The notes beneath the pieces were generated by a model that was given only the letters and a program-made list of their open reading frames with translations, was not told the origin of the DNA and ran no database searches. The translations under genes and the position numbers were made by a program. 64,000 nucleotides of DNA from Eledone cirrhosa (Eukaryota). Each line of letters starts with the position of its first letter. Within the stretch, counting starts at the first letter, position 1. Where the stretch lies: contig CAXHJY010001456.1 of NCBI GenBank assembly GCA_964016885.1, forward strand, positions 1 to 64,000. The letters are read 5' to 3'. Shown here piece after piece: positions 2,556 to 58,058 of this stretch.

Positions 2556-2600
2556 AGTCACTGAAGAGGTCACAGAGTGTGTGACGAAAGGACTATGACT
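2556..2600 (+). ncRNA. Minimal type I hammerhead ribozyme in the family A pLTR (other copies 36583-36627 -, 48516-48560 -, 49039-49083 +)
   Basis: AGTCA-CTGAAGA-G-GTCACA/gagtg/TGTGAC-GAA-AGGACT-A-TGACT. Stems I and II pair perfectly. Confidence 0.85.
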
Positions 2601-2843
2601 ATATATATAAACAACTATCTGGTTGTGGAACCAACCAACCAACCAGAAATTTATAAGTTTGTAGATTTGTAAATTTATAAATTTATAAATATATAATAAA
2701 TTGAAGTGAAAGCAACTGGTGCGTGTGTTTCTTATTGGCAACATGACCCTCCCAAAGTATAACAATATCGGTTTCAACACACGATTTCAGATAAAGAATC
2801 TTGCTAAACAAATTCAGAAACGAAATATCTATATATATATATA

Positions 2844-3205
2844 TATAAAGAAAAAGGGATGAAATCGAAAATGCAACTGAAGTCTTATTTTTTTAAAAAT
2901 ATATATATTTATTTGGTTCCTTTACCGGTTTCGCAGTTCTTCTGCTTTTCAAAAGGTGAGTTGAGATGGAGGGTCTGTGGTTTTTCTCACATCAGATGTG
3001 AGAAAAACCACAGACCCTCCATCTCAACTCACCTTTTGAAAAGCAGAAGAACTGCGAAACCGGTAAAGGAACCAAATAAATATATATATTTTTAAAAAAA
3101 TAAGACTTCAGTTGCATTTTCGATTTCATCCCTTTTTCTTTATACTTCCACTCGTGTAGGACACCTCGGTTATTTTTCATTTTGTAAAAAAAACCTCACT
3201 TTCTA
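2844..3205. mobile_element. Palindromic non-coding mini-element (~150-bp arms, 1-nt spacer at 2994) between (TA)n tracts
   Basis: 2844-2993 is the reverse complement of 2995-3144. Each arm carries an HHR motif. Confidence 0.85.
3032..3069 (+). ncRNA. Minimal hammerhead ribozyme with U3-A8 core variant (mirror copy 2919-2956 -)
   Basis: CCTT-TTGAAAA-GCAG/aagaa/CTGC-GAA-ACCGGT-A-AAGG. Confidence 0.8.
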
Positions 3206-4408
3206 ATATATATATATATATATATATATATATATATATATATATATATATATATATATATATATATTTATATATATATATTTATATATATATATATATA
3301 TTTATATATATATATATATATATATATTTATATATATATATATATATATTTATATATATAAATATATATTTATATATATATATATAAATATTTATATATA
3401 TATATATTTATATATATATATATATATATTTATATATATATATATATATATATTTATATATATATATTTCTATATATATATTTCTATATATATATTCCTA
3501 TATATATATTTATATATATATATATATATATATATACTTTTATTTATATATATATATATTTATATATATATATATATACATATATATATATATATATATA
3601 TATATATATATATATATATTTATATATAAATATATATATATATATATATATATATATATATATATATATATATTTATATATTTATATATATTTATATATA
3701 TATATATATATTTATATATATATATATATATATATATATATATATATATATATATATATATATAAATATATATTTATATATATATATATATATTTATATA
3801 TATTTATATATATATATATATATATATATATATATATATATATATATTTATATATATATATATATATATATATATACATATATATATATATATATATATA
3901 TATATATATATATATATATATATATATATATATATATAAATATATATATATATATATATATATATATATATATATATATATATATATATATATATATAAA
4001 TATATATATATATATATATATATATATATATATATATATATATATATATAAATATATATATATATATATATATATATATATATATATATATAAATATATA
4101 TAAATATATATATATATATATATATATAAATATATATATATATATATAAATATATATATATAAATATATATATATATATATATATATATATATATATATT
4201 TATATATATATATTTATATATTTATATATATATATATATATATATATATATATATATATATATATATATATATAAATATATATATATATATATATATATA
4301 TATATATATATATATATATATATATATATATATATATATATATATATATATATATATATATATATAAATAAAAGTATATATATATATATATATATATATA
4401 TAAATATA
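3206..4408. repeat. (TA)n microsatellite with TTTA/TAAA interruptions
   Basis: Seen directly in the sequence. Confidence 0.98.
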
Positions 4409-55300: not shown

Positions 55301-57023
55301 ATATATATATAAATATATAAATATATAAATATATATATATATATATATAAATATATATATATATATAAATATATATATATATATATATATATATATATAT
55401 ATATAAATATATATATATATAAATATATAAATATATATATATATATATATAAATATATATATATATATAAATATATATATATATATATATATATATATAT
55501 ATATATAAATATATATATATATATATATATATATATATATATATAAATATATATATATATATATATATATATATAAATATATATATATATAAATATATAT
55601 ATATATAAATATACATATATATATATATATATATAAATATATATATAAATATATATATATAAATATATATATATATATAAATATATATATAAATATATAT
55701 ATATATATAAATATATATATATAAATATATATATAAATATATATATATATATAAATATATATATATATATAAATATATATATATATAAATATATATATAT
55801 ATAAATATATATATATAAATATATATATATATATAAATATAAATATATATATATAAATATATATATATATATAAATATATATATATATATATAAATATAT
55901 ATATATATATAAATATATATATATAAATATATATATATATATAAATATATATATATATATATAAATATATATATATAAATATATATATATATAAATATAT
56001 ATATATATATAAATATATATATATATAAATATATATATATATATAAATATATATATATATATAAATATATATATATATATAAATATATAAATATATATAT
56101 ATATATAAATATATATATATATATATAAATATATATATATATATATATAAATATATATATATAAATATATATATATATATAAATATATAAATATATATAT
56201 ATATATAAATATATATATATATATATATAAATATATATATATATATATATAAATATATATATATAAATATATATATATATATAAATATATATATATATAT
56301 AAATATATATATATAAATATATATATATAAATATATATATATAAATATATATATATAAATATATATATATATAAATATATATATATAAATATATATATAT
56401 ATATATAAATATATATATATAAATATATATATATATATAAATATATATATAAATATATAAATATATATATAAATATATATATATATATAAATATATATAT
56501 ATATAAATATATATAAATATATATATATATATATAAATATATATAAATATATATATATATATATAAATATATATAAATATAAATATATATATATATAAAT
56601 ATATATATATATAAATATATATATATATATAAATATATATATATATATAAATATATATATATATATAAATATATATATATATAAATATATATATATATAA
56701 ATATATATATATATAAATATATATATATATATATATATATATATATATAAATATATATATATATATAAATATATATATATAAATATATATATATATATAT
56801 ATATATATATATAAATATATATATATATAAATATATATATATATAACTATATATATATATATAAATATATATATATATATAAATATATATATATATAAAT
56901 ATATATATATATAACTATATATATATAAATATATATATATATAAATATATATATATATATATATATATATATAAATATATATATATATATATATAAATAT
57001 ATATATATATATATATAAATATA
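52373..57023. repeat. 4.6-kb (TA)n tract with periodic TAAA interruptions
   Basis: Seen directly in the sequence. Confidence 0.98.
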
Positions 57024-57420
57024 TGTAGGAGGTGTTTTATTGTAGTACAATAAAGCAATGCAGATATCGGATAAGAAGCACTCTACAGTTTGTAGGACTG
57101 GAGTATACATAATATAAGATCAAAAGATGGTTAAAGGAGTTCCATGTATTTTATTATGCGCATTTCAAAAACAAACACCATCATGCAATAATATTTGTGT
57201 TTTCATCAGATAAAACAGGAGAACATGATATGAAGGCTAAAAAACACCTGTGGACAGTGCAGTTGATTTAAAACTGCACTGTCCACAGGTGTTTTTTAGC
57301 CTTCATATCATGTTCTCCTGTTTTATCTGATGAAAACACAAATATTATTGCATGATGATGTTTGTTTTTGAAATGCGCATAATAAAATACATGGAACTCC
57401 TTTAACCATCTTTTGATCTC
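57024..57420. mobile_element. Family G palindromic mini-element (two pLTR ends, junction ~57265)
   Basis: ~57117-57264 is an inverted repeat of ~57272-57419. Each arm carries an HHR. Confidence 0.9.
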
Positions 57421-57562
57421 ATATATATAAATATATATATATATATTTATATATATTTATATATATATATATATATATATATATATATATTTATATATAT
57501 ATATATATTTATATATATATATATATATATATTTATATATTTATATTTATATATATATATAA

Positions 57563-58058
57563 AGGAACGATCGACTTTCGTCAAATCGGACCGAGGGAAC
57601 AATGTTTCGGTTGGTCTTTCCAATTGCTACTACTATCTATCGGTCGCAACTCCAGGTAGAAGGATATACGATATTAATAAATGGAAACTATATTTATAAA
57701 ACCATATATTGTATTGTGCCTTCTTCAGACATAATACAATATATAACAGTTTTACAAATAAGCTTTGACGTACCCTTTTAACATGCAACCATTATTTTTG
57801 GAAGCCATCAGGTTGCATTTTAAAAGGATACGTCAAAGCTTATCTGTAAAACTGTTATATATTGTATTTTGTCTGATGAAGGCATACCATAATTTAATTT
57901 GGTATCCCTGAAATATGTATAATGAAATAAATATGGTTTTATAAATATAGTTTCCATTTATTAATATCGTATATCTACTCCAAATACTTGTCGAGTGCTT
58001 TATATCAGTTATAAAAATATTTACTTGTTGTATCCCAACAATTTAAATAGAACTTTTT
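57563..58058. mobile_element. Family E variant hairpin mini-element; the left arm is partly deleted and preceded by ~100 bp of unassigned sequence
   Basis: Inverted arms around ~57800. Intact HHR at 57865-57929. Confidence 0.78.

Follow-up and report, generated by a model that had tools for sequence, protein, structure and literature searches.

How do short non-coding tandem repeats with a hammerhead ribozyme in every unit come to lie in the same (TA)n tracts as Penelope-like elements (PLEs)? This question is raised by a 64,000-nt stretch of the genome of Eledone cirrhosa (GenBank assembly GCA_964016885.1, contig CAXHJY010001456.1, positions 1 to 64,000; G000:C1483:1-64000 in the 3.0-Gb genome assembly), hereafter the window, which is built of retroelement pieces separated by TA tracts. 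Four repeats of this kind, with units of 310, 470, 517 and 552 nt (hereafter the passengers), are non-coding and tandem, carry a type I hammerhead in each unit, have a GC content below 50% and are dispersed across the genome. From the sequence evidence given below, we consider it probable that they are non-LTR (long terminal repeat) retrozymes whose arrays arise when PLE-type priming starts rolling-circle synthesis on one RNA monomer, likely a circle.

Insertion layout of passengers and PLEs

For the 310-nt unit, layout was recorded in 38 insertions, drawn from 20 best-hit loci, 16 loci of position-ordered or variant lists and 1 background locus. For the 470-, 517- and 552-nt units, 24, 14 and 20 insertions were used, the last two sets covering 14 and 20 out of 30 loci each. 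Window copies, duplicates and arrays cut by a locus edge were not counted. Two head-to-head arms were observed in 33 out of 38, 18 out of 24, 7 out of 14 and 14 out of 20 insertions, respectively, with up to 19 copies in an arm. Among these two-armed insertions, one long and one short outer end were present in 31 out of 33, 17 out of 18, 5 out of 7 and 10 out of 14. The short and long ends lay at fixed sites of the unit, at about 265 and 291 (310-nt unit), 396 and 469 (470-nt unit), 361 and 429 (517-nt unit), and 424 and 545 (552-nt unit). The inner junctions of the 310-nt arrays were scattered: 59 of the 70 ends were distinct, none fell at the cleavage positions 126-127, and 22 of the 33 junctions overlapped by 1-19 nt. 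No terminal direct repeats were found in the 96 insertions. Since the transition to TA at positions 265 and 296 of the 310-nt unit is also present in contigs of run X1, perhaps from the source sample, the fixed ends are unlikely to be an assembly artefact.

The same layout was observed in PLEs. In PLE pseudo-LTRs (pLTRs) of hammerhead families F1, F4 and F5, caught by chance in the fetched loci, 27 of the 30 inverted pairs had one long and one short end (8/9, 10/11 and 9/10, respectively), and the carrier of family F11 also showed two end sites. Two repeats of the window served as controls, a long interspersed nuclear element (LINE) and a hammerhead-less 616-nt tandem unit; neither was two-armed (0 of 15 LINE copies with the 5' end in view; 0 of 21 insertions of the 616-nt unit, which had one fixed end). 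An inverted arm and a one-sided tail are described as hallmarks of PLEs (PMC8557442), and the tail of a lizard PLE is reported to be the distance between two internal start sites of reverse transcription, with both strands extended and a dimer predicted (PMC11167929). The two-armed, two-ended layout is diagnostic and links the passengers to PLEs. The tie between them, proposed in a preliminary description of the window, is upheld by this shared layout, which is unlike that of both controls.

Two loci showed additional features. The arms of one 310-nt array are separated by 272 nt of unrelated sequence (L300:2598-2871), and another 310-nt array is adjoined by a 320-nt tandem family with 72-76% identity to the 310-nt unit (L036:8884-9897).

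Uniform arrays, private variants and A-to-G clusters

Over 12 position-ordered loci, copies differed by 0.0013 substitutions per site within the same arm, 0.0010 between opposite arms and 0.0058 between arrays. Private variants filled single arrays. The cleavage triplet was GUG in all 20 copies of the 310-nt array of the window and in no other array of the family, which has 8300 GUA copies, and GUU filled two other 310-nt arrays in both arms (14 out of 14 and 4 out of 4 copies). The NUH triplet rule (H, not G) is broken in these 20 hammerheads of family F2 and in the one at 18036 (all GUG), and is kept by the F2 family at large and by the other families. A GUG triplet cleaves poorly.

The cleavage-site variants left over were 2 singletons in about 8340 copies. 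Control site 211 had 30 variant copies, which filled three arrays, were partial in two and included 7 singletons. The idea of the cleavage site as a mutation hotspot was rejected on this comparison, with site 126 changed array-wide in three arrays versus three, plus two partial, for site 211. In one 470-nt array of the GUC subfamily (L353, G000:C1:69.44 Mb), two of the six copies, the outermost ones of a single arm, had GUG.

In one of the 310-nt arrays with the control-site variant (L342, G000:C2:273.39 Mb), 11 changes, all A-to-G on the hammerhead strand, were present in every copy of the 0.8- and 4.5-copy arms. Eight of them lay within 13 nt and turned the core GAAA into GGGG, a pattern unique to this locus. 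Over the ribozyme span, a G preceded one of the eight changed adenosines versus four of the five unchanged ones (p = 0.03). Adenosine deaminase acting on RNA (ADAR) is described as disfavouring adenosines after G and as unusually active in octopus (PMC5625713), and the sparing of such adenosines at L342 suggests an ADAR pattern. A second cluster was found in the 470-nt family (L360, G000:C2:86.97 Mb), with 10 A-to-G changes relative to the nearest subfamily, common to both arms and to all overlapping copies (up to 4 out of 4). A cluster search of this family gave four matches, two being the arms of L360 and the other two not such clusters. Among single-copy changes, 8 out of 89 were A-to-G; distinct array-wide changes over 59 loci comprised 19 A-to-G versus 3 T-to-C.

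An edit is made on one molecule, and the same pattern in every unit of both arms therefore means that one unit was read repeatedly. This suggests that each array was copied from one RNA monomer.

Two other lines of evidence were set aside. An A-to-G lineage at position 75 of the 310-nt unit comprises 838 copies across the 310- and 311-nt subfamilies, and the mirrored T-to-C change (T145C) only 4 scattered copies; the imbalance was not used as proof of editing, since G.U is tolerated and A.C is not. Single 340-nt cyclic contigs from runs X4-X6 fit a circle but equally fit low-coverage DNA of an 8300-copy repeat.

Proposed pathway and alternative explanations

In the pathway that we propose, the array would be transcribed, and its hammerheads, likely as dimers through the palindromic loop 3, would excise a monomer that is likely ligated to a circle and would sometimes be edited by ADAR. 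A PLE protein, likely a dimer, would nick both strands of a (TA)n tract, and each 3' end would start synthesis from one of two set positions within the monomer, whose distance of 26-120 nt corresponds to the PLE 'tail'. Both reverse transcriptases (RTs) would circle the same template, pass the cleavage site and stop at random. Short microhomology would then let the two cDNA ends be joined into a head-to-head array, one of whose outer ends is long and the other short, and in one-armed insertions only one side would have been kept. A circle is the simplest template; the hammerhead strand of the 310-, 470-, 517- and 552-nt units folds well as a circle (z = -7.2, -8.0, -3.5 and -5.1, respectively), which is not proof. 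We lean towards regarding the arrays as fossil records of rolling-circle retrotransposition: the two halves of a PLE dimer, each primed on one strand of a cut (TA)n tract, would have gone up to about 20 times round single ribozyme-made RNA circles, some of them with ADAR edits that destroy the ribozyme.

The PLE machinery might instead insert uncut linear multimeric transcripts of a donor array, with neither cleavage nor circles involved. Cleavage is reported as dispensable in vitro for the lizard PLE (PMC11167929), reverse transcription runs through the cleavage site without a stop, and the GUG array, with 17.9 copies, is among the longest seen. However, a change on one unit of such a transcript should mark one copy, and private variants and A-to-G patterns of 10-11 sites fill both arms; nor does the assembly hold a donor with GUG or the edited core. 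We judge insertion of uncut multimers improbable.

Equally doubtful is growth in place, as in the satellite model of a 2026 preprint (10.64898/2026.07.22.740005), where a short PLE-type insertion would come first and then expand by unequal crossover or slippage with homogenisation. Although partial variants in neighbouring copies and block duplication agree with this model, inverted opposite arms are as alike as copies inside one arm, and 21 young 310-nt loci hold single-copy changes but no partial variants. Moreover, the L342 edits at 211 and 250 are present in the first and last partial copies alike, and the outer ends are exact in about a thousand dispersed arrays.

Uniform arrays and shared edits would be accounted for equally well if a linear, hammerhead-cut monomer were re-read by repeated RT jumps from its 5' to its 3' end, without a covalent circle, and the 470-nt array with GUG in two of its six copies speaks for such jumps. 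We nevertheless find them very unlikely: 5' ends, indels and additional changes do not accumulate at the cleavage site (0 of 70 ends at 126-127; two singletons versus seven at the control site), and retrozyme circles are reported to be abundant in other animals (PMC7229834). Finally, movement via DNA (rolling-circle or extrachromosomal circles) or via the young, abundant (2831 exact 3' matches) and TA-targeted LINE, with the PLE likeness incidental, is hardly credible, as LINE copies are one-armed with a single end and strand-specific A-to-G clusters require an RNA step.

Several points weigh against copying from a single monomer circle. Most samples were best hits, and are thus biased to young copies. 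The link between passengers and helpers rests on layout, the passengers having no sequence match to the pLTRs of the window beyond the ribozyme core. Targeted searches brought up no more than two A-to-G clusters; 3 of the 11 changes of L342 and 2 of the 10 of L360 occur in other lineages too, and once L342-only and searched sites are removed, array-wide changes are 8 A-to-G versus 3 T-to-C (p = 0.075). Over the 59 loci, 42 variant cells were partial and 151 fixed, although 15 of the partial ones came from two arrays merged in one locus (L047). Partial variants formed runs of neighbouring copies and were more frequent in the older 517- and 552-nt families, and at L352 a whole arm with its TA flank was duplicated several times, a local block duplication. 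Arrays thus also change after insertion, in place. In addition, the lizard PLE needs no hammerhead cleavage in vitro and uses unprocessed RNA (PMC11167929), 8 out of 9 Xenopus retrozyme dimers are reported not to have cleaved (10.64898/2026.07.22.740005), uniform multimers are also formed by the hammerhead-less 616-nt unit, and a donor array could lie outside the present assembly.

A shared (TA)n target

Across the genome, 3' ends of the passengers were followed by (TA)n in 69 out of 71 (310-nt), 36 out of 41 (470-nt), 19 out of 21 (517-nt) and 28 out of 33 (552-nt) insertions, versus a background of 5.6%; the expectation that passengers elsewhere also sit at (TA)n thus holds. The same was observed for pLTR 3' ends (F1, 27/32; F4, 37/38; F5, 35/37), for LINE 3' ends (29/30, the first 30 of 2831 exact 3' matches) and for the 616-nt unit (21/21). 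Since the LINE and the 616-nt unit, neither with an inverted arm, are TA-flanked too, a shared (TA)n target is not diagnostic of the machinery, and its use as the mark of a single one was ruled out. Of the earlier proposal of one target and one mobilising machinery, the common target therefore stands, and the two controls, together with the presence of at least two PLE types and the lack of any match between passengers and pLTRs outside the ribozyme core, speak against the single machinery. More than one PLE family likely serves the units. Assigning helpers by sequence or by a common end motif yielded nothing beyond the ribozyme core and the kinship of PLE-A and PLE-K.

The LINE (13351-15857, 10821-11405) is young and ends in a short tandem 3' tail. 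Genome-wide, the 616-nt unit forms arrays of 1-10 copies with 99% identity, one fixed 3' end and a uniform haplotype per array. It has no match to transfer RNA (tRNA) or Rfam, its + strand folds better than shuffles (z = -4.1), and it could be another circle-like parasite, served by a different helper.

Hammerheads in the window and in the genome

The window was scanned with structure-aware criteria (core, stem II, GAAA, loop 3, U-N and stem I), with 30 dinucleotide shuffles as control. The strict scan identified 43 type I motifs versus a mean of 1.3 in shuffles, and the core CUGANGA was perfect in 41 of them (mean of 0.13 in shuffles). Nine motifs were added by eye or by a relaxed scan, without shuffle control: two each of F6 (28864+, 46003-) and F8 (51568+, 52085+), both families with a weak stem I; F12 (28355+), with a variant core; the U3-A8 covariants 2952-, 3036+ and 10473+; and a half-deleted copy (57728-). 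The total of 52 (51 whole, 1 half-deleted) falls into 13 families, or 14 when the F5 variant at 57.7-57.9 kb is counted apart, and traces to about 21 insertions, with 20 motifs supplied by one 310-nt array.

The preliminary count of about 52 motifs in about 14 families is borne out, as is their excess over shuffled sequence. The statement that almost every non-LINE insertion carries a hammerhead needs correction for the 616-nt repeat (4409-7362), whose unit gave no ribozyme with Rfam (E <= 10) or the relaxed scan, and for two short unidentified fragments set between TA tracts (7363-7593 and 7733-7916), where the relaxed scan found no hammerhead.

Twenty evenly placed 10-kb genome samples (200 kb, L161-L180) held 28 motifs, or about 9 per 64 kb, including F1, F2, F4-like and F5-like motifs and families absent from the window. 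By rough extrapolation, the genome would hold some 400,000 hammerhead motifs. The window has a (TA)n share of 18.6% versus 3.3% in the samples, and without its 20-copy array it has 23 motifs by the strict scan, matching its TA content. The view of a hammerhead 'zoo' specific to this locus was consequently rejected; such a 'zoo' is ordinary for such a genome.

The minimal PLE hammerhead has been described as having a short stem I, a long stem II and an unpaired base after A9, without tertiary loop contacts; a U3-A8 variant is described in the same paper (PMC4209133). The minimal traits fit F1 and F6, whereas F2 and F3 are closer to the canonical form. The motifs of the 310- and 470-nt units have an extended stem I with an internal loop and a 5-bp stem II, and gave sub-threshold matches to Rfam HH9 (22.2 and 37.7 bits, respectively, versus a threshold of 52). 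They look canonical rather than minimal, and the idea that all hammerheads here are minimal was abandoned. Paired two-sided changes of stem II were seen between copies of F3 and of F12; motif support is weaker for F6, F8, F12 and F14.

Coding PLEs and other features of the window

The layout of endonuclease-containing (EN+) PLEs, with RT followed by GIY-YIG and a hammerhead in the 3' pLTR, was found in PLE-A, PLE-K, PLE-G, PLE-J and the carriers of F11 and F5, the coding frame of the latter being seen at genome locus L169 and not in the window. Only PLE-A matched the RVT_1 profile, weakly; its best named relative is an Octopus vulgaris protein (68%). PLE-A and PLE-K have a CX4CxxC linker and CCHH in the endonuclease, and PLE-G and the F11 carrier a CxCX5C linker without CCHH, with CxxC and CxH near the C-terminus. 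The marks CX2-5CxxC and CCHH have been given for the Neptune clade, and CxCX5C, CxxC and CxH for the Hydra clade (PMC8557442). By these motifs, PLE-G and the F11 carrier belong to the Hydra type, and PLE-A and PLE-K are provisionally named Neptune type, the motifs being common to Nematis too. PLEs of the window thus span at least two clade types, as judged from motifs; Hydra-type copies in the window are 5'-truncated.

The pLTR-only mini-elements, initially presented as separate parasites, are most simply explained as short two-armed insertions of autonomous families. The features of the window are listed in Table 1.

Table 1. Features of the window; hammerheads are given by family and position, with the strand where it was stated
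Positions	Strand	Feature	Hammerheads
1..2826	+	PLE-A 3' part, RT and GIY-YIG (open reading frame, ORF, to 2278), with pLTR; long 3' end	F1, 2561
2844..3205	.	F13 two-armed mini-element; 301-bp palindrome and 61-nt tail on right arm	U3-A8, 2952-, 3036+
4409..7362	+	616-nt unit x4.8; elsewhere dispersed, TA-flanked, one-armed; control	none
8161..9520	-	F5 pLTR/3' untranslated region (UTR)	8265
9523..10619	+	PLE RT fragment similar to PLE-G	F14, 10473, U3-A8, weak stem I
10821..15857	+	LINE (13351-15857) and its 585-nt 3' copy (10821-11405), TA-flanked; control	none
16415..18300	-	F10 element(s), simple-repeat-rich	16568; 18036 (changed core, GUG)
18309..19869	+	PLE-G 3' fragment; short end	F4, 19772
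19943..21076	+	552-nt unit x2; long end right; 48-nt inverted stub left, ending at short site	F7, 20265, 20817
21172..27307	.	310-nt array, 2.0 copies on - (21172-21777), 17.9 on +; left end at long site, right end about 14 nt short of usual short site	F2 x20, all GUG
27394..28580	+	PLE-J endonuclease end and pLTR	F12 (variant), 28355
28781..29119	+	PLE-K pLTR	F6, 28864, weak stem I
29471..33705	.	PLE-G, Hydra-type motifs, ORF 31250-33028 on -; complex inverted insertion	F4, 30226-, 33520+
34006..35941	.	F5 two-armed insertion; long end left, short end right	34194-, 35839+
36369..42247	.	PLE-A, Neptune-type motifs, 927-aa frame 36925-39708 on -; inverted arm 40120-42247; right pLTR interrupted just ahead of its hammerhead, its end replaced by about 47 foreign nt (42248-42294)	F1, 36622-
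42331..43371	-	Another Hydra-type PLE, 3' UTR/pLTR; 134-nt inverted arm	F11 (CCGAAGA core), 42411
44197..45476	.	470-nt array, 2.1 copies on -, 0.7 on +; long end left, short end right	F3, 44533-, 45002-, 45218+
45753..47655	-	PLE-K, 64% identical to PLE-A; 84-nt inverted arm	F6, 46003
47724..48135	.	F5 two-armed mini-element	47829-, 47949+
48292..49233	.	F1 (PLE-A pLTR) two-armed mini-element; long end left, short end right	48555-, 49044+
51495..52374	+	517-nt unit x1.7; short end	F8, 51568, 52085 (weak stem I, non-palindromic loop 3)
57018..57430	.	F4 (PLE-G pLTR) two-armed mini-element	57209-, 57327+
57562..58058	.	F5-variant two-armed mini-element	57873+; 57728- (half-deleted)

The last part of the window (58100-64000) is a diverged satellite with a period of about 880 nt and subunits of about 200 nt, preceded by a 376-nt dimer, and contains little TA; its CTGATGA occurrences lack stems and were rejected as hammerheads. 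No tRNA was found in the window. Positions 1-9551 match G000:C2:10660244-10650824 in reverse with 99-100% identity, up to an assembly gap, and the contig is probably an unplaced haplotype or gap filler. The match at C2:10.65-10.66 Mb covers positions 1-9551 only, and a comparison of filled and empty sites found no allele for the arrays.

Comparison with known systems

That PLEs at (TA)n carry numerous hammerhead families is established knowledge and nothing unusual. A 2014 paper proposed hammerheads in pLTRs, with many families in one genome, as well as dimers and a circle template for more-than-unit copying (PMC4209133). In 2020, animal retrozyme circles were shown and PLEs named as likely helpers (PMC7229834; also PMC7761336, PMC6765202), and a 2026 preprint added arguments from co-occurrence and pLTR phylogeny and discussed local amplification (Li, Clavereau and Pollet, 10.64898/2026.07.22.740005). 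In these sources, tandem and inverted PLE insertion, the role of the hammerhead and the mover of retrozymes are left open (PMC8557442, PMC7229834, PMC4209133, 10.64898/2026.07.22.740005). Our search, which left most subscription papers and supplements outside its scope, found no paper on a two-armed, two-ended retrozyme layout or on array-wide edits.

With its thousands of young, near-identical insertions whose starts are mapped, two controls with the same target (the LINE and the hammerhead-less repeat) and RNA-edit barcodes, the genome makes the circle model testable by counting and then in vitro. If correct, this model would provide genomic proof that animal retrozymes are PLE parasites, that each of their tandem arrays comes into being complete, and that edits of RNA enter the germline genome, where they seed new subfamilies. 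As a tool, too, a natural enzyme able to copy a small RNA circle many times into one defined repeat would be of interest.

Among known passengers, the non-autonomous Chlamys elements such as MRC1 (PMC8557442) are non-coding PLE passengers too, inserted as multiple head-to-tail copies. They are algal, their 3' ends resemble those of their helpers and most Chlamys are described as lacking hammerheads, whereas the present passengers are unlike pLTRs. The PLEs of the window resemble published EN+ PLEs of the Hydra and Neptune types (Craig et al. 2021, PMC8557442; Cervera and de la Pena 2014, PMC4209133) in their RT with C-terminal GIY-YIG, pLTR hammerhead, 5'-truncated inverted arm, one-sided tail, (TA)n target, U3-A8 variant and multitude of unrelated hammerhead families in a single genome. 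Tails are 26-120 nt here versus 30-40 nt in these descriptions, and our clade calls are by motifs.

The Poseidon PLE of Anolis, as studied in vitro (Frangieh et al. 2024, PMC11167929), also has two internal starts that set the tail, both strands cut and extended, an AT-rich target and a predicted dimer. In that study the template was linear, and the start site is not homologous to the target, whereas the present ends lie at short AT-rich stretches running into the TA tract.

In unit design, the passengers resemble animal non-LTR retrozymes (Cervera and de la Pena 2020, PMC7229834; 10.64898/2026.07.22.740005). These are tandem, GC-poor and non-coding as well, each unit being a few hundred bases long and containing a type I hammerhead, and PLEs were proposed as their mobilisers and circles as their templates. 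The 517- and 552-nt units exceed the 150-450 bp first given for retrozymes but lie within the 51-972 bp of the preprint. The published link to PLEs comes from co-occurrence and pLTR likeness, whereas that of the present units comes from the PLE layout, with its inverted arms, two end sites and TA target, and from edit patterns present in every copy, without pLTR likeness. The new part is countable genomic evidence for the proposed mechanism of a known kind of element.

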